Shown here: piece by piece, positions 14,849 through 22,044 of the stretch
Layout of the letters: each line of letters begins with the position of its first letter
Numbering within the stretch: the stretch's first letter is position 1
Notes under the pieces: generated by a model
Seen by the model: only the letters and a program-made list of their open reading frames with translations
What the model was told of the DNA's origin: nothing
Databases searched by the model: none
Origin: Escherichia coli
GTDB taxonomy: Bacteria; Pseudomonadota; Gammaproteobacteria; Enterobacterales; Enterobacteriaceae
Assembly: GCF_003991155.1 (NCBI RefSeq)
Contig: NZ_CP031293.1
Length of the DNA: 64,000 bases
Reading direction: 5' to 3' (one strand)
Translations under genes and position numbers: made by a program

Positions 14849-16408
14849 TTACTTGATATCTTTCACGCGCATACCGTTGATCTGTTCATCCGTGATGGTG
14901 TTACCCGCTTTGAAGTAATCAACCACGGCGTGATAAACGTAATAACCGCCCGTTGTGTTACGCGCTTTCCCTTCGGTAAAGGCGGTAAAACCATCTCCAC
15001 CATCAGCAAGGAAACTCTGGGTGGCAATAGAATAAACTGTCGCATCTTCAATGGGTTTGCCATTCAGAGTCAGTGTGATTACCCGCTGACCAACCGGTTT
15101 GCTGCTGTCGTACTTCATTTCCAGGCCTTTCGATACCTGTAAAACGCCATTACTTAAACTTGCGCCGTGTTCCATCAAACTGCGTAATTGTTTACCCGTG
15201 AGTTCCATCGTCACCAGTTCGTTGGGGAACGGGAAGGTACTGATGACGCCGCCCATCGTAATCGCCCCTGCGGGGATCTCATTGCGAATGCCGCCAGAGT
15301 TGGTTAACGCCAATTGGGTGTTTTTACCCGCCGCTACCAGTAAAGCATCAGCCGCCAGGTTCCCGAGGGAAGCCGATTCACCATAGGCACGTTTTAATTC
15401 AACCGGCGATTGCGCGACCGTTTGTTGCACCACTTCATCAAGCTTTTTATTCCAGCCGTCGATCACCTGTTTTGTTTGCGGATCGGGCTTCCACTCGTCG
15501 GCGTAAATGGTTTTAAGCTCGAAGTTTTTCACCGTAAAATCATGCGGCTTCTCTTTGTAGTCCAGTACCAGTTTACCGACATCAATCCCACCGCTGTCAG
15601 TGGAGAGGATGAGCGTATTGCCGACTTTAATCGGTTCCGGCGTACCCACATGTGCATGCCCGGTGATCAAAATATCCAGCCCTTTCACCTGACTTGCCGT
15701 CTGAATATCTTTATCCAGTGCGCGGCGCACATCTGTGCCCCCCATACTGGACTGGCGGGCCGGAACACCTTCGTGAATCAGCGCAACGGTCAAATCAACC
15801 TTGCCTTTGAGTTCATCGATATAACGTTGTAGCCATTTAATTTCATCACGCGCCTCAATACCCACTCGCGTTGCCGCAGATACCGTATCATTAAAGGCAA
15901 ATACACCGTGCAAACCAATCACGCCAATTTTCACGCCGTCTTTTTCAATGATGGTATAGGGCTTATCCCAGAATGATTTACTGCTGTTCTGATAAAAAAC
16001 ATTACCCTGCACAATCGGGAATTTTGCCTGACTCAACTGTAATAACGTATTGTCCCAGCCGTGATCAAATTCATGATTACCTATAGTGACCGCATCGAAT
16101 GGCATGGTATTCATAATATCGATAATCGCCTTGCCTTTAGTCAGGCTGCTGATATACGGCCCGGTAAAATAGTCACCCGCATCAAAAAACCAGGTCGCTT
16201 TGTTTTTAGCTTTTTCTTGTTTAACAAGCGTAGTGATATTTGCCCAGCCGCCAATATCTCGTTTACCGTCAGCAATCCACGGCACTTTATAAGGCTCTAC
16301 ATGTGCATGGAGGTCGTTGGTATAAATGATGGTGACATCTTTGGCGCAAGCCCAAAACGGCAGTGTTAATGCGATACCCGCAGCAAGCATTTTAATTTTC
16401 ATAAACAA
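14849..16408 (-). CDS. Secreted 5'-nucleotidase-family metallophosphoesterase, paralog 1
   Basis: 519 aa; N-terminal signal peptide; calcineurin-like phosphoesterase motifs [32 protein letters not shown]; C-terminal 5'-nucleotidase-type motifs (FPFPNEL, GGDGF). Confidence 0.85.
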
Positions 16409-16534
16409 TCCCTTCCAGTGAGATAAAGGATTGCTACATTACGTTCTGAAAGGCTTTTTTATGTGAGAATACTCACATCCAGAGGCGATAACTGTAGGAC
16501 AAAATCAACGACCTTATGAAATCGTTGGTGATAT

Positions 16535-17662
16535 ATGTCAAATCTGTTTGCGATTAATGTCTGTAAAACGTTCGGTTGTCGAAATTTGGGATTGGCCTCA
16601 TCGGAAGATTACAGTTGGCCAGACTATAAACTGGGTTTTCCGGCACTGCACTGCCAGGCATGCGGAAGTTACCCCCCTTTGTTTGATGAACAACAATTTC
16701 GTGACTGGTTGTCAGTTCACATGACTGCGTGTGCCATAGAAACAGGGCATTTTTGTCCATCATGCTATTGTAAAGAAAAGATTTTTTATGGCCACAACCC
16801 GCAGGGAACACAACGCGTTCAATGCCGTTCATGCAAAAAAGTCTGGACTCCGAAACAGCAGCCAGCAAGAGAAATTACGTATCCCCAGTCCATTGAAACC
16901 GTTCAACTGTTCATGCCCTTTCAAGGAGCCAGCGCAGTACAAAAGCTCTATGTTTTAGTCAGTCTTGACGCCACTCGTGGCAACATCCTTCATCTCTCCA
17001 CGAATTATACGCAACATCAGACAGGAGACAGTCTGCGGTACAGTTACAGAGGCAATACAGAACCAACTGAGCACCATAGCGATATTGTGCAGAGGGTAGA
17101 TATGCGTGAAGCGCAATTCTTGCGCCGGAGCCAGTTCGATGAAATTCAGTATGGCAGTGCTGTGCTCAAGCGCAATGGCAAGGGAGCCATACTACGCCCG
17201 GTTATCACGGCACACGGGCATTTCAGAATACTGAAAATCCGCTTTCCACATGTCAAAACGCATATCATTTCACACGAATGTTTTCTGAGAGGCGCAATTA
17301 TTACAGCCTGGGCAGATCAGTTCCGCCAACAACAAGGCGAACTTTGGTTCGTAGAAGAAGAAATCAGCGACCGTAACGCTGATATTCCCTGGCATTTTCA
17401 GGGAACGACATACCATGGTTGGTGGCAAAATCAGTGGCAACGCTGGGGGCAGGGGAATAACAGCAAGATGGTCTGCCTGCTCACAGGAGTCTCCTTAGAA
17501 AGGGGCGCAAATGTTTCTCTGGCAACCAGTCGTTGCTTTATCACATGGCTGACAGACCAACACGACTTTACCCAAAGCGCGTTATTATCCGCAGGTCGCG
17601 TAACGAAAATGCTGACCTCACTGGCGTTAAAATACAATGAATCGCTCACTCCATCTTGTTAG
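16535..17662 (+). CDS. Hypothetical Cys-rich protein (multiple CxxC pairs, possible zinc ribbon); function unknown
   Basis: 375 aa ORF; no signal peptide or TM segment; N-terminal CKTFGC, CQAC, CPSCYC, CRSC motifs; divergent from paralog 1 and upstream of paralogs 2 and 3. Confidence 0.6.
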   Translation: MSNLFAINVCKTFGCRNLGLASSEDYSWPDYKLGFPALHCQACGSYPPLFDEQQFRDWLSVHMTACAIETGHFCPSCYCKEKIFYGHNPQGTQRVQCRSCKKVWTPKQQPAREITYPQSIETVQLFMPFQGASAVQKLYVLVSLDATRGNILHLSTNYTQHQTGDSLRYSYRGNTEPTEHHSDIVQRVDMREAQFLRRSQFDEIQYGSAVLKRNGKGAILRPVITAHGHFRILKIRFPHVKTHIISHECFLRGAIITAWADQFRQQQGELWFVEEEISDRNADIPWHFQGTTYHGWWQNQWQRWGQGNNSKMVCLLTGVSLERGANVSLATSRCFITWLTDQHDFTQSALLSAGRVTKMLTSLALKYNESLTPSC

Positions 17663-17891
17663 TCAATACACTCGACAAACGACCATAAATTAATGGGATC
17701 ACTATTTCTCATTTAATTAAATATATGAATGTATGACTGAAAAATATAATCACAGTCAATGTTTAATTAATAACATTATTTGTTACTAAGATCACATAAT
17801 ACTTTCCTGACCTATGCTTACATAAAAATAAGACACGGTGTTCCTTTTATTTAAATAATTCAACCAATGTAACAACCCCTATCAAGGAGGG

Positions 17892-19445
17892 ATGATGAGA
17901 ACTGTATTTACGACTTTATCAGTCATATTCAGCGTGATGTTTTCTCACAGTATACTAGCTCAGGACGTTACTATTTATTATACGAATGATATTCACGCAC
18001 ATGTCAATCCGGCAAAAATTCCCGCTGTTGATAAGAACAGACTTGTAGGTGGTATGGCTAATATTGCAGGCATCGTTAATGAAGCGAAGAAAAAAAACAA
18101 AGATGTCTTTTTCTTTGATGCAGGCGACTATTTTACCGGTCCGTATATCAGTACCCTGACCAAAGGTGAAGCTATTATTGATATCATGAACACCATGCCC
18201 TTTGATGCGGTGTCCGTTGGTAATCACGAGTTCGATCACGGCGTGCCCAATATGGTATCTCAGTTATCAAAAGCAAAATTCCCCATTCTGCTGGGAAATA
18301 TTTACTACACCGATACAAATAAACCAGTTTGGGATCATCCGTGGACCATTATCGAAAAAGATGGTTTAAAGATTGGTGTGATTGGATTGCATGGTGCATT
18401 CGCTTTCTATGATACAGTCGCGGCAAAAGCACGTGAAGGCGTAGAAGCCAGAGACGAAATTAAATATTTAAATAAAGCACTTGCAGAATTAAAAGGTAAA
18501 GTCGACATTACCGTTTTGCTAATTCACGAAGGTGTTCCGGCGCGTCAATCAAGCTTTGGTAGTAAAGATGTGGAGCGGCTACTACAGGCAGATATTGAGA
18601 CAGCTAAAAAAGTGAATGGTGTTGATGTCTTAATTACCGGTCACGCACATGTCGGAACACCGCAACCAATAAAAGTTAATAACACATTAATTGTATCTAC
18701 CGATGCATACGGCACCGACATCGGAAAACTTGTGCTTGATTACAATCCGAAAACAAAGAAAATTGATAGTTATAATGGTGAGTTAATCACCATCTTTGCA
18801 GATCAATTTAAACCTGACACCATCGTTCAAAATACTATCGATAAATGGAGCGTAAAACTTAACAAAATAACACAGGAAGTTGTCGGCCATTCTCCCGTAG
18901 TTTTAACACGTGAGTATGGCAGTTCTTCTTCTACCGGTAATCTTATTCTGGATGCAATGATGGAAAAAACACCTGATGCCATTGCCGGATTTCAAAATAG
19001 CGGTGGGATGCGAGCTGATTTTCCTAAAGGTGATATCACACTGGGAGATGTTATTAGCACATTCCCCTTTAATAATGACCTCATCGAGATGGATTTGACG
19101 GGCCGCGATCTCAAATCGTTGATGACGCATGCAACCAATCTAACTAACGGTGTGTTACAGGTTTCAAAAAGCGTTGCGGTTGTCTATGACAGCAAAAAAC
19201 CACTCAACCAACGGTTAATCTCTTTCACCATTAACGGCAAACCCGTGGAAGATAATCAAACATATCGTATTGCCACGCACTCCTTTTGTGCCAGTGGTGG
19301 TGACGGTTTTGAAGCATTTTTGAATGGAAAAAATGTGAAGACGATACCGGGAACAACCTCGGCGGAATCTATCATCGATTATTTCAAAAATCATAAACCT
19401 GTCACCCCAGACTTAACTAAACGAGTCATGGACGTCGCCAAATAA
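17892..19445 (+). CDS. Secreted 5'-nucleotidase-family metallophosphoesterase, paralog 2
   Basis: 517 aa; signal peptide ending SILA-QD; same phosphoesterase motif set ([32 protein letters not shown]); SD aggagg upstream; the true start may be the second ATG at 17895. Confidence 0.85.
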   Translation: MMRTVFTTLSVIFSVMFSHSILAQDVTIYYTNDIHAHVNPAKIPAVDKNRLVGGMANIAGIVNEAKKKNKDVFFFDAGDYFTGPYISTLTKGEAIIDIMNTMPFDAVSVGNHEFDHGVPNMVSQLSKAKFPILLGNIYYTDTNKPVWDHPWTIIEKDGLKIGVIGLHGAFAFYDTVAAKAREGVEARDEIKYLNKALAELKGKVDITVLLIHEGVPARQSSFGSKDVERLLQADIETAKKVNGVDVLITGHAHVGTPQPIKVNNTLIVSTDAYGTDIGKLVLDYNPKTKKIDSYNGELITIFADQFKPDTIVQNTIDKWSVKLNKITQEVVGHSPVVLTREYGSSSSTGNLILDAMMEKTPDAIAGFQNSGGMRADFPKGDITLGDVISTFPFNNDLIEMDLTGRDLKSLMTHATNLTNGVLQVSKSVAVVYDSKKPLNQRLISFTINGKPVEDNQTYRIATHSFCASGGDGFEAFLNGKNVKTIPGTTSAESIIDYFKNHKPVTPDLTKRVMDVAK

Positions 19446-19485
19446 AATATCATTTATCAGTCTATATATTTAACAAGGAATGCGA

Positions 19486-21105
19486 ATGAAAACAGTGCAG
19501 CGTACTTTACTTGCCGCAACATTGCTGACTATTTTTTCGGTCTCAGTCATGGCGCAGGATGTCACGATTATTTATACAAATGATCTTCACGCTCATGTGG
19601 ATTCTTATAAAGTGCCGTATATCGCAGACGGAAAACGCGACATTGGCGGCTTTGCCAATATATCTACTTTAGTAAAACAAGAGAAAGCGAAAAATAAAGC
19701 CACCTTTTATTTTGATGCTGGAGACTATTTCACCGGCCCTTATATCAGCAGTCTGACAAAGGGCGAAGCAATAATTGACATTATGAATACCATGCCTTTT
19801 GACGCAGTATCAATCGGTAATCATGAGTTTGACCATGGCTGGGATAATGCCCTGCGACAATTAAGCAAAGCGAATTTTCCTGTTTTATTGGGCAATGTTT
19901 ATCATAAAGAGAGTGAGAACCCCTTCTGGAACAAGCCCTACACCATCCTGGAAAAAGATGGCATCAAGATTGGTATTATTGGGCTACACGGCGTATTTGC
20001 ATTTAATGATACGGTCTCGGAGCTCTCTCTCCAGGGACTCGATAATGACAATAATAACCGCTTTGATAAATCTTCCGAGACCCTTAAGAATCAGGGGATT
20101 GAAGCACGTGATGAAGTGAAGTATTTGCAGCATTATATCGACGAGTTACGTGATAAGGTTGACCTCACTGTGGCGCTGGTTCATGAAGGCGTTCCGGCGC
20201 GTCAGTCCAGCATTGGCAATACAGATGTTAGACGCGCTCTTGATAAAGATATTCAAACCGCTAGCAAGGTGAAAGGATTGGATATTCTGATTACCGGGCA
20301 TGCCCACGTCGGAACGCCAGAACCAATCAAAGTCGGCAACACCTTAATCCTTTCGACTGATAGTGGCGGTATCGATATTGGTAAATTAGTCCTTGATGTC
20401 AACCCTACAGCTCGTACCCATAAAATGAAGAGCTTTGAGCTGAAAACAGTTTATGCCGATGAATGGATACCCGATCCAACGACACAAAAAGTTATCAATG
20501 GCTGGAATAAAAAACTGGCGGATATTGTACGCCAACCAGTAGGTGAATCATCGATTGCATTAACTCGCGCCTATGGTGAGTCATCGCAACTAGGCAACCT
20601 GTTTACCGATGCAATGCTTGTCGCTGCTCCGACTGCACAGATTGCATTGATAAACTCCGGCAGCTTACGTGCGGATATAAATGCAGGCACGATTACCTTT
20701 GGCGACATTACCAGTACATTCCCCTTCAAGAATGAACTTACTGAAATGGATCTCAGCGGTAAGGATCTGCGTAACCTACTGGAACACGGGGCATCGCTTA
20801 CCAATGGCATCCTGCAAATGTCAAAAGGCGCAGAAATGCGCTATACCCCGCAGAAACCAGTAGGTCAGCGCATAGTATCTTTTAAAATTAATGGTGAAGA
20901 GATCGTTGATACGAATATTTACCATGTTGCAACAACGACTTTCCTTGCACTGGGGGGCGATGGTTTTCTGGCATTCAAAGAAGGGAAAAATGTTCAGGTC
21001 CGCGCCGGAAATAACATGTCCGATGTCGTGATCGATTATTTGAAGAAAGGCCACAAGATTACGCCTGCACAGGTAAATGAAATGCGGGTGGACGTTAGCA
21101 AATAA
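19486..21105 (+). CDS. Secreted 5'-nucleotidase-family metallophosphoesterase, paralog 3 (closest to paralog 1, with an extra low-complexity insert)
   Basis: About 539 aa from MKTVQRTLLAATLL (the ORF track starts two codons earlier at 19480); signal peptide VMA-QD; motifs as in paralog 1; insert SELSLQGLDNDNNNRFDKSSETLKNQ absent from paralogs 1 and 2. Confidence 0.85.
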   Translation: MKTVQRTLLAATLLTIFSVSVMAQDVTIIYTNDLHAHVDSYKVPYIADGKRDIGGFANISTLVKQEKAKNKATFYFDAGDYFTGPYISSLTKGEAIIDIMNTMPFDAVSIGNHEFDHGWDNALRQLSKANFPVLLGNVYHKESENPFWNKPYTILEKDGIKIGIIGLHGVFAFNDTVSELSLQGLDNDNNNRFDKSSETLKNQGIEARDEVKYLQHYIDELRDKVDLTVALVHEGVPARQSSIGNTDVRRALDKDIQTASKVKGLDILITGHAHVGTPEPIKVGNTLILSTDSGGIDIGKLVLDVNPTARTHKMKSFELKTVYADEWIPDPTTQKVINGWNKKLADIVRQPVGESSIALTRAYGESSQLGNLFTDAMLVAAPTAQIALINSGSLRADINAGTITFGDITSTFPFKNELTEMDLSGKDLRNLLEHGASLTNGILQMSKGAEMRYTPQKPVGQRIVSFKINGEEIVDTNIYHVATTTFLALGGDGFLAFKEGKNVQVRAGNNMSDVVIDYLKKGHKITPAQVNEMRVDVSK

Positions 21106-21117
21106 TAAAAAAATTAT

Positions 21118-21150
21118 AATGCCATTCATTCACTGAATGGCATTATTTTT
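21118..21150 (+). terminator. Intrinsic terminator after nucleotidase paralog 3
   Basis: Perfect palindrome aatgccattcattcactgaatggcatt followed by attttt. Confidence 0.65.
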
Positions 21151-21183
21151 CTCTAAATCAACAATAGATAATGAGATATATTT

Positions 21184-22044
21184 ATGTGTATAAAAAAGCA
21201 CGGGATAGCGTTATCGATTCTATTAATACCTTGCATTGGAAACGCTCAGGAAATTAAAAGTGAGGAAGGCTGGTTACATCAAAGCTTGAATGTCATTGGT
21301 CGCACAGACTCTCGCTTTGGCCCAAGGCTGACTAACGACCTCTACCCTGAATATACTGTAGCAGGAAGAAAAGACTGGTTTGATTTTTATGGTTATGTTG
21401 ATCTACCAAAATTCTTTGGCGTCGGCAGTCACTATGATGTTGGGATCTGGGATGAGGGCTCACCCCTATTTACGGAAATAGAACCTCGGTTTTCCATTGA
21501 CAAATTGACCGGATTAAATCTTGCGTTCGGCCCTTTTAAAGAATGGTTCATTGCAAACAACTATGTCTATGATATGGGTGACAACCAGTCATCCCGGCAA
21601 AGTACATGGTATATGGGGCTTGGTACAGATATCGACACGGGTCTACCAATTAAGCTTTCTGCCAATATATACGCCAAGTATCAGTGGCAAAACTATGGTG
21701 CCGCTAATGAAAATGAATGGGACGGATATCGATTCAAAATAAAATATAGCATTCCTCTTACCCATTTATTCGGAGGGCGATTGGTATACAATAGTTTTAC
21801 TAACTTTGATTTTGGCTCCGATCTTGCGGACAAATCACACAATAATAAACGAACCAGTAATGCTATTGCTTCAAGCCATATCCTTTCCCTGCTATATGAA
21901 CACTGGAAATTTGCATTTACACTACGTTATTTTCACAACGGTGGACAATGGAATGCTGGGGAGAAAGTTAACTTCGGAGATGGTCCATTTGAATTAAAAA
22001 ACACAGGATGGGGAACCTATACTACTATTGGTTATCAATTTTAA
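21184..22044 (+). CDS. Tsx-family outer-membrane nucleoside-specific channel protein (paralog of tsx)
   Basis: 286 aa; signal peptide; shares recalled Tsx blocks [79 protein letters not shown]; ends in a C-terminal aromatic residue (GYQF) typical of beta-barrels. Confidence 0.85.

Follow-up and report, generated by a model that had tools for sequence, protein, structure and literature searches.

An island that carries three or four paralogs of the same periplasmic enzyme, a 5'-nucleotidase, raises the question of what distinguishes them from one another. The window analysed here, a stretch of 64,000 nucleotides from Escherichia coli (contig NZ_CP031293.1), comprises three such genes, paralogs 1, 2, and 3 (Table 1), and the clearest structural difference among the island paralogs is an insert in the protein encoded by paralog 3. 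This insert goes back to one ancient in-frame insertion of 60 nt in one lineage of the enterobacterial periplasmic 5'-nucleotidase family.

Table 1. Coordinates of the nucleotidase paralogs, their neighbour, and features of paralog 3 in the window
Feature	Position	Strand	Remarks
Paralog 1, insert-free (VSAATRVG)	14849..16402	-	protein of PDB 3IVD/3IVE
Paralog 2, insert-free (VAAKAREG)	17895..19445	+	three-paralog alignment
Paralog 3, insert-bearing; periplasmic bifunctional metallophosphatase/5'-nucleotidase	19486..21105	+	539 aa by RefSeq start
Predicted Sec signal peptide M1-A23, ending in VMA, followed by QD	19486..19554	+	translation; helix 3-19 in AlphaFold model
Perfect 9-bp inverted repeat, GGTCTCGGA / TCCGAGACC	20013-20021 and 20074-20082		encloses the greater part of the insert in this allele; regarded as due to chance
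Insert proper, E179-Q203	20020..20094	+	stands in place of AATRV (5 residues) of paralog 1
Asp/Asn core, D186-S197 (12 residues), DNDNNNRFDKSS	20041..20076	+	EF-hand/DxDxDG-like at positions 1-9, position 12 not acidic
I389-N390-S391-G392-S393, nucleoside-binding N-x-G-G motif (CD73 N390-G393)	20650..20664	+	clade-specific T389I and G393S; profile alignment
F414-K415, base-clamp Phe (aligned with CD73 F417) and next residue	20725..20730	+	clade-specific P415K; profile alignment
T485-F486, residue adjoining the second base-clamp Phe (aligned with CD73 F500)	20938..20943	+	clade-specific S485T; profile alignment
Tsx-like nucleoside-channel gene	21184..22044	+	Pfam Channel_Tsx, E 4.9e-70

The insert-bearing gene and its product

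The open reading frame of paralog 3 begins at 19480, upstream of the RefSeq start. With no lipobox in its predicted signal peptide, the product is expected to be a soluble enzyme of the periplasm. Two Pfam domains are found in the protein, Metallophos (PF00149, residues 27-275, E 3.9e-11) and 5_nucleotid_C (PF02872, residues 357-499, E 5.8e-37). The first contains all the dimetal motifs (D-x-H, G-D, G-N-H-E, H, and G-H-x-H), whose residues D33, H35, D77/D80, N112-H113-E114, H233, H272, and H274 are invariant in the 61 sequences aligned; the second, the nucleotide-binding domain, has the base-clamp aromatics and the N-x-G-G-x-R motif, with N390, R395, F414, F486, and D492 opposite N390, R395, F417, F500, and D506 of CD73 in a profile alignment. 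An AlphaFold model built from 61 sequences (pLDDT 85.8) displays the two-domain fold of the 5'-nucleotidase/UshA/CD73 family, and a Foldseek search with it retrieved 3IVD (E 1e-83, TM 0.96) as well as CD73 and UshA (E ~1e-39). By sequence and predicted fold the protein is a member of this family, and hydrolysis of nucleoside 5'-phosphates is its putative activity, the one hint of it being the nucleoside ligands in the titles of 3IVD and 3IVE.

The closest structures, PDB 3IVD and 3IVE, are those of the putative 5'-nucleotidase c4898 of E. coli, i.e., of paralog 1, solved with uridine and with cytidine. They are 66-67% identical to paralog 3 over the full length (rmsd of the model 2.3 Å) and have all the metal-ligand and nucleoside-binding motifs in common with it, but their loop is short, VSAATRVG, against 28 residues in paralog 3, and they have T, G, P, and S in place of I389, S393, K415, and T485. 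Human ecto-5'-nucleotidase CD73 (e.g., PDB 4H2I, 9HD5) and E. coli UshA (1USH) share with paralog 3 both Pfam domains, the dimetal ligands, the two-Phe base clamp, and N-x-G-G-x-R, although the identity is only 22-25%; among their structures the model is closest to CD73 in the closed state (TM 0.77-0.80). A short conserved (S/G)-N-P-(G/E) sequence stands at the insert loop in CD73, UshA, and the Thermus enzyme, whereas paralog 3 has an unrelated sequence of 25 residues. Unlike CD73 and UshA, the enterobacterial family also has an additional loop, EGVPARQSS, after the H233 ligand. A literature search covering 3IVD and c4894-c4898 found no biochemical reports on paralogs 1, 2, or 3.

Extent and composition of the insert

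Positions 20017-20094 lie in frame within paralog 3 and code for S178-Q203, SELSLQGLDNDNNNRFDKSSETLKNQ, of which E179-Q203, ELSLQGLDNDNNNRFDKSSETLKNQ, is the insert proper, the exact placement of its borders being uncertain by 1-2 codons. In the alignment of the three paralogs a 20-column gap in paralogs 1 and 2 lies opposite the insert. The preliminary description of this locus had spoken of about 25 extra residues, which is the length of E179-Q203; paralog 3 has gained 20 residues net (60 nt), about five ancestral residues, AATRV, having been substituted. The segment is a real addition: the distance between two family-wide anchors, GLHG..AF.DT and [IV]EA.DE, is 28 residues in 16 insert-bearing proteins and 8 residues in every other close match with both anchors (~100 relatives).

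The Asp/Asn-rich character noted earlier was borne out, with a DNDNNN core and eight D or N among 26 residues, while the DNA is not distinctly AT-rich as had been stated: the G+C content of 20017-20094 is 0.436 vs 0.443 for the whole gene, and 56% of 78-nt windows of the gene have a G+C content equal to or below that of the insert. AT-richness is confined to the 18-nt run of Asp/Asn codons, being due to the GAY and AAY codons themselves. No donor or duplicate of the insert better than E ~1 was found in the rest of the window by tblastn or blastn-short; the insert peptide had no match at E up to 10 among PDB sequences (phmmer), nor did the insert with its flanks in Pfam.

Origin and conservation

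The insert is not ancestral to the family, since the alignment shows the short form in every anchor-bearing close relative outside the insert clade. In a tree built without the insert columns the bearers are monophyletic, and both the sister clade and the next outgroup are insert-free; the bearers thus form one clade nested among insert-free clades, which points to a single old insertion. The gene is present in 658 of 5,426 complete E. coli genomes, including that of UPEC 536, and all the carriers have one copy of the insert in its full length. The earlier statement that it is unique to paralog 3 therefore applies to the three paralogs of the window, as orthologues from Citrobacter, Enterobacter, and E. 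albertii carry the same insert. Its length is identical in the eight orthologue genes compared and fixed in all 16 clade members and across four genera.

The insert is under purifying selection and conserved in related genera. The summed pN/pS is 0.115 within it vs 0.099 in the remaining protein, at pS ~0.7, i.e., with synonymous sites near saturation. Fourteen of its 25 residues are invariant (L180, S181, G184, L185, D186, N187, R192, F193, K195, S196, L200, K201, N202, and Q203), the hydrophobic anchors L180, L185, F193, and L200 among them. Moreover, the equivalent segment is 12-17 residues long in 186 of 196 domains from 150 distant representatives, so that in 95% of them the loop keeps within a range indicating a normally constrained length; the 36 residues of paralog 3 are the longest seen.

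These data bear directly on the view that the insert is a neutral, tolerated surface decoration which arose by replication slippage or illegitimate recombination and merely persists. The low complexity of the core, its low pLDDT with no predicted secondary structure, and a peptide with no detectable homologue in Pfam, PDB sequences, or the window agree with such a view, but it is made improbable by the pN/pS ratio at near-saturated synonymous sites, the invariance of over half of the residues, the lack of any length change in four genera and 658 E. coli genomes, and the fact that the loop enlarged is one of constrained length across the family. Nor is the DNA a repeat tract: the codons of the Asn run are mixed, with AAT and AAC alternating and differing between species. 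A slippage-type insertion, suggested previously, is contradicted by the fixed length, the single copy with no donor in the window, and the purifying selection, and neither repetitive DNA nor length polymorphism between strains, the marks of a slippage-prone tract, was found.

An in-frame relic of a small MITE-like mobile element ending in inverted repeats (cf. the Rickettsia palindromic elements) was considered on account of the perfect 9-bp inverted repeat that encloses 52 nt of the insert, and was rejected as having a negligible probability. The repeat is missing from the orthologues and is broken in the common E. coli allele (GCG vs GAG here); an equal one occurs in 4.6% of shuffles of the region, and two more of the same kind are present in the gene. 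The RNA fold of the region is no better than that of shuffled sequences (z = +0.5), and the insert sequence occurs once per genome in the 658 genomes and nowhere else in the 5,426.

Location of the enlarged loop in the fold

The insert had been placed in the linker after the phosphoesterase core. It lies instead within the Metallophos match, between the GNHE motif (N112/H113) and the metal ligand H233 of the N-terminal metallophosphatase domain, the predicted interdomain helix being formed by residues 331-349 of the AlphaFold model. In the profile alignment T176-V177-S178 are opposite P182-F183-L184 of CD73, and the replaced residues, at the AATRV position, are opposite CD73 S185-T189. The posterior probability in the insert stretch is 0.4-0.7, so the equivalence holds at the level of the loop and not of single residues. 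As judged by this alignment, the loop enlarged in paralog 3 is the equivalent of CD73 S185-T189, an SNPG loop that is conserved in classical 5'-nucleotidases and that in the closed enzyme is the N-domain wall of the interdomain cleft, beside the nucleobase. In a co-crystal structure (PMC13077603) the N6-substituents of adenine nucleotides bound to CD73 are in contact with N186, and P182, F183, L184, and N186 line the inhibitor pocket of CD73 in a docking study (PMC8657903). In the drug target CD73 the counterpart of the insert loop contributes to the active-site cleft on its nucleobase side.

The surface loop proposed in the preliminary description is compatible with the AlphaFold model, in which residues 178-202 have no secondary structure and a pLDDT below 50. 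Structure prediction, recommended there for placing the loop, gave a good overall fold but no confident conformation of the insert (pLDDT ~32 over residues 178-202), and a model from 13 insert-bearing orthologues alone had a mean pLDDT of 32 over its whole length.

The insert probably reshapes the edge of the substrate cleft. We tentatively favour, with confidence falling somewhat short of even, an old expansion of a cleft loop that now serves specificity or gating in a diverged paralog. In one lineage a single in-frame 60-nt insertion enlarged this loop of the N-terminal metallophosphatase domain, and purifying selection has kept it since; the resulting 25-residue loop would serve the cleft as a longer rim or as a lid, and we infer that its effect may be on the nucleotides accepted by paralog 3 or on the closure of the two domains. 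If the insert does change specificity, it offers a natural handle on how this cleft loop tunes the substrate choice of 5'-nucleotidases, and would help to explain why some E. coli lineages (658 of the 5,426 genomes) retain the full island. Otherwise paralog 3 represents an ordinary enzyme variant, with a loop enlarged in one lineage of a well-known family.

Clade-specific substitutions near the nucleoside site

The loop might work jointly with the clade-specific substitutions T389I, G393S, P415K, and S485T, located near the nucleoside-binding residues. The roles of the latter are those described for CD73 (PMC8657903). The second Gly of the N-x-G-G motif is replaced by Ser in 14 of 15 clade members, and four of the 13 clade-diagnostic substitutions are at most one residue away from positions aligned to CD73 N390, G392, G393, R395, F417, F500, and D506 (hypergeometric P 4e-4, in a post hoc test designed after the data had been seen). 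P0014, the bearer that has diverged most, carries the insert but keeps the ancestral T389, G393, and I409, so the insert and those substitutions are not strictly linked.

The Asp/Asn core as a putative cation-binding loop

An EF-hand loop comprises 12 residues, with ligands at positions 1, 3, 5, 7, and 9, I, L, or V at position 8, and a bidentate Glu or Asp at position 12. The core D186-N-D-N-N-N-R-F-D194 could be a loop of the EF-hand/DxDxDG type binding calcium or another divalent cation, mainly as a structural metal site: the ion would stiffen the insert in the cation-rich periplasm, a role compatible with that of a cleft rim. On its sequence, calcium binding by the core is possible, though we regard such a site as unlikely on balance. 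The pattern D-x-[DN]-x-[NS]-[NH]-x-F-[DS] of the insert fits ligand positions 1, 3, 5, and 9 and has tolerated residues at position 6, and positions 1-9 are fitted by all 16 bearers if Phe is allowed at position 8. Six core residues (D186, N187, R192, F193, K195, and S196) are invariant, and variation occurs only where the EF-hand pattern tolerates it (D/N at position 3, N/K/E at 4, N/S at 5, N/H at 6, and D/S at 9). The nine-position pattern has a rate of ~1e-4 per residue in 255 other proteins fetched, but an Asp/Asn-rich composition meets an EF-hand-like pattern more easily than this background rate implies. The core is flanked by amphipathic, helix-like sequence, and a weak hint of helix at 179-183 and 197-202 appears solely in the orthologues-only model mentioned above.

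The core is similar to EF-hand loops without belonging among them; it departs from them at two positions, with positions 1-7 and 9 fitting, Phe instead of I, L, or V at position 8, and S or A instead of an acid at position 12 in 16 of 16 sequences; it is also a single, unpaired loop. E198 of paralog 3 is a minority allele, most orthologues having Ala there. The full PROSITE-type EF-hand pattern fails in all 16 sequences; a Pfam scan gave no EF-hand hit even when E values up to 10 were admitted, and no PDB sequence matched. Compared with DxDxDG, a turn whose further ligands come from other parts of the fold, the core reads D-N-D-N-N-N, with N for D at position 5 and N for G at position 6, in a stretch of local pLDDT below 50.

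The Tsx-like neighbour

In all seven distinct loci examined a Tsx-like gene adjoins the insert-bearing nucleotidase gene, in either gene order, and the Tsx-like proteins are 58-64% identical between loci; at one locus (L006) the two genes are the entire module. The expansion of a specificity or gating loop would fit a setting of subfunctionalisation in a multi-paralog nucleotide-scavenging island, with the Tsx-like outer-membrane nucleoside channel as the constant partner.

The same neighbourhood admits a different function, that of a docking surface for a partner from the module, either the adjacent Tsx-like channel, which would hold the nucleotidase by its periplasmic turns, or another island protein. 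The constant adjacency, the reduction of one locus to just these two genes, and the location of insert-free sister-clade genes away from tsx (two such genes examined had no tsx neighbour) are consistent with docking, and the combination of conservation and poor modelling seen in the loop is characteristic of segments folding upon binding. Nevertheless, shared metabolism, from nucleotide to nucleoside to uptake, alone predicts the adjacency with no need of physical contact, the periplasmic turns of Tsx are short, and docking has, in our estimation, a low probability.

A bolder proposal, which we consider quite doubtful, extends the gating loop to a cation-stabilised lid that would give paralog 3 a range of substrates lacking in the short-loop paralogs, e.g., dinucleotides, cyclic nucleotides, NAD, or nucleotide sugars; together with its obligatory Tsx-like neighbour the enzyme would then constitute a two-gene nucleotide-harvesting module spreading horizontally in Enterobacteriaceae and found in E. 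coli strains like UPEC 536. The gene of paralog 1 lies away from tsx and forms a divergent pair with a hypothetical gene coding for 375 aa.

The insert in paralog 3

Paralog 3, one of the three neighbouring periplasmic 5'-nucleotidase genes of the window, carries extra Asp/Asn-rich residues (E179-Q203) facing a 20-column gap in both paralogs 1 and 2 in the three-paralog alignment, and the segment outlined in the preliminary description is in frame and encodes S178-Q203, SELSLQGLDNDNNNRFDKSSETLKNQ. Among the 120 closest database proteins, the family-wide anchors GLHG..AF.DT and [IV]EA.DE are separated by 28 residues in 16 proteins and by 8 in all others having both anchors; the insertion is thus real, having added 20 residues net and overwritten ca. 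five ancestral ones (AATRV). Its proposed uniqueness to paralog 3 holds among the three genes of the window but not overall, as the insert is also found, at constant length, in orthologous proteins 81-88% identical to paralog 3, with Citrobacter, Enterobacter, and E. albertii among their sources. Nor is it a feature of most family members: in a library clustered at 50% identity (196 5'-nucleotidase domains, 150 best representatives) the equivalent segment has 12-17 residues in 186 of the 196 domains, while the 36 residues of paralog 3 are the maximum, and the handful of other long loops show no sequence relationship to the insert.

The coding stretch had been called distinctly AT-rich, but its G+C content is 0.436 vs 0.443 for the gene, with the same or a lower value in 56% of the gene's equal-sized windows, and AT-richness is limited to the Asp/Asn codon run. 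The insert was also misplaced in a linker following the phosphoesterase core. It is internal to the region matched by Pfam Metallophos (27-275), with the GNHE motif (N112-E114) before it and the metal ligand H233 after it; the interdomain helix is predicted at 331-349 in the AlphaFold model.

Origin and selective constraint

In a neighbour-joining tree built with the insert columns removed, the insert-bearing proteins form one clade. Its sister, a clade of the Cronobacter and Atlantibacter type (70-73% identity), lacks the insert, and the paralog 1 clade branches next. Because the bearers are monophyletic and the tree contains an insert-free sister and an outgroup, the sequences point to one insertion event at the base of the bearer clade. 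The 75-nt insert sequence is present as one full-length copy per genome in 658 of 658 carrier E. coli genomes, 97 of them at least 99% identical to the window over the insert, and nowhere else in the collection of 5,426 E. coli genomes; no donor sequence was found within the window. With full length in these genomes and fixed length in orthologues, a slippage-type origin is unsupported.

Summed over a codon alignment of eight orthologue genes, pS, pN, and pN/pS are 0.70, 0.080, and 0.115 for the insert, and 0.59, 0.059, and 0.099 for the rest of the mature protein. Synonymous sites are near saturation and the insert peptide is preserved, 14 of its 25 residues being invariant, the hydrophobic L180, L185, F193, and L200 included. 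The insert may be functionally neutral, but this fits the selection data poorly.

A perfect 9-bp inverted repeat flanks the insert in the window. A small mobile element, which it suggested, was rejected: the repeat is not present in orthologues and is disrupted in the common E. coli allele (GCG vs GAG here), being perfect in the window because of the single GAG (E198) change. Such a repeat arises in 4.6% of shuffles of the region, two more like it occur in the gene, and RNA folding of the region gave no improvement over shuffled sequence; the single-copy insert sequence also contradicts a mobile element. The repeat is treated as a chance feature. E198 is a minority E. coli allele, the usual one and most other genera having Ala, and P0014, the most divergent bearer, Gly.

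In another bearer, P0015 (L009 3398-5011, E. coli draft GCA_001520995.1), encoded at the paralog 1 position, both ends are those of paralog 1, while the middle (roughly alignment columns 150-300) matches paralog 3 exactly, insert included. This mosaic arose either through conversion of one paralog by another or as a chimera in the draft assembly; the contig stops 355 nt past paralog 2, where paralog 3 would start.

Position in the enzyme and possible function

The enzyme family, its fold, and even a crystal structure of a sibling are already on record, and annotation of the gene is routine; no description of the subfamily or of its enlarged cleft loop was found in the available literature. PDB entries 3IVD and 3IVE (titled 'putative 5'-nucleotidase c4898', with uridine and cytidine as ligands) represent the paralog 1 protein. 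The AlphaFold model of paralog 3 (61-sequence alignment, mean pLDDT 85.8) superimposes on 3IVD with a TM of 0.96, and is closer to closed-state structures of human ecto-5'-nucleotidase CD73 (TM 0.77-0.80) than to open-state ones (about 0.54). The insert (178-202), modelled at a pLDDT of about 32, is devoid of secondary structure and is bordered by a helix (170-176) and a strand (205-207).

When the family profile is aligned with PDB sequences (chain index equal to canonical CD73 numbering, verified at N390 and R395), T176-V177-S178 match CD73 P182-F183-L184, and the residues replaced by the insert match S185-N186-P187-G188-T189 with a posterior of 0.4-0.7, i.e., a loop-level equivalence. It is the (S/G)-N-P-(G/E) loop common to CD73, snake-venom, and Thermus enzymes that the insert replaces. 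In a co-crystal structure of CD73, N186 touches the N6-substituents of adenine nucleotides (PMC13077603), and a CD73 docking study names Pro182, Phe183, Leu184, and Asn186 among pocket residues (PMC8657903). Since the aligned CD73 loop residues line the pocket, the insert would enlarge the wall that the N-domain contributes to the substrate cleft, beside the base.

The insert clade is uniform at thirteen positions that differ in nearly all remaining family members: E39D, L124R, Y140H, R202N, T389I, G393S, I409T, P415K, S485T, G507A, A514V, D537V, and V538S. Four of them (389, 393, 415, and 485) lie at or beside residues aligned with N390, G392/G393, F417, and F500, in CD73 the Asn that contacts the base, the Gly-Gly pocket, and the adenine-clamp Phe pair (F417 and F500), respectively, a roughly ten-fold near-pocket enrichment (post hoc hypergeometric P about 4e-4). 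Position 393 is Gly in 92 of 93 non-clade sequences. P0014 combines the insert with K415 and T485 yet retains T389, G393, and I409, which implies that the insertion came first and some pocket changes later.

Beyond location, age, and constraint, which the data establish, we infer a functional consequence: tentatively, the insert is a loop kept by selection as a rim or lid to the substrate cleft and would, in combination with the pocket substitutions, give paralog 3 a substrate range or domain closure distinct from its short-loop siblings. The enlargement would matter if this loop indeed switches substrate specificity. The insert may, judging from its residues, also hold a calcium site, which is compatible with a cleft-rim position. 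Its core, D-N-D-N-N-N-R-F-D, fits positions 1-9 of the EF-hand loop (PROSITE PS00018) in 16 of 16 proteins, varying only where the rule permits, but it has S or A at position 12 and Phe at position 8, and no Pfam or PDB sequence matches, so that it resembles an EF-hand or DxDxDG loop without qualifying as an EF-hand.

Another extra loop (residues 234-251), directly following H233, is found in the whole enterobacterial family and corresponds to gaps in CD73 and the Thermus 5'-nucleotidase. Family-specific and near the active site, it is more conserved than the insert, nearly invariant, with R239, Q240, S241, and S242 unchanged; the pLDDT of residues 237-245 is below 50.

The host island

The window is chromosomal. 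Paralog 3, identical to a RefSeq 'bifunctional metallophosphatase/5'-nucleotidase', is one of five genes that make up an accessory island in the metF/metL interval. Of 5,426 complete E. coli genomes, 658 carry paralog 3, and the same 658, including UPEC 536, have the complete island; ca. 1,100 more have only paralog 1 and the hypothetical gene. The G+C content of paralog 3 is 0.44 vs 0.51 for the entire window.

Coordinates of the island and of features within paralog 3
Feature	Position	Strand	Remark
Nucleotidase/Tsx island	14849-22044		
Paralog 1	14849-16402	-	island gene
375-aa hypothetical protein	16535-17662	+	island gene
Paralog 2	17895-19445	+	island gene
Paralog 3	19486-21105	+	island gene, insert-bearing; RefSeq start
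ORF opening of paralog 3	19480-19485		ATG CGT (M-R), two codons before RefSeq start
Left repeat arm	20013-20021		GGTCTCGGA
Segment encoding S178-Q203	20017-20094		
Right repeat arm	20074-20082		TCCGAGACC
Codon 198	20077-20079		GAG
Post-H233 loop	20185-20238		
Tsx-like channel	21184-22044	+	island gene

The island is mobile between genomes (the window and the compared loci L002, L004, L005, and L006): it occupies the metF/metL interval in E. coli and Citrobacter enshiensis, and other chromosomal positions in L002, L005, and L006, with one (L006) to four (L002) nucleotidase paralogs. At all loci readable (the window, L002/L003, L004, L005, L006, L007, and L008) the Tsx-like gene directly adjoins the insert-bearing gene, in either order, and in L006 the two constitute the whole module. 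The Tsx-like proteins of different loci share 58-64% identity. Two insert-free sister-clade genes have no tsx neighbour, their partner being a homologue of the 375-aa protein gene. The cleft-rim reading would suit a periplasmic nucleotide-to-nucleoside scavenging module; the insert may alternatively dock to the Tsx-like channel.

The 375-aa protein, which may be a dedicated regulator, is Cys-rich and cytoplasmic, with CxxC pairs; it has no Pfam family, and its zinc-ribbon InsA/Dof matches are weak (E about 0.6). Its gene is divergent from a paralog-1-type nucleotidase gene in every case (the window, L002, L004, L005, and L009), and a 422-aa homologue (37% identity) is the equivalent neighbour in both L011 (Cronobacter) and L012.
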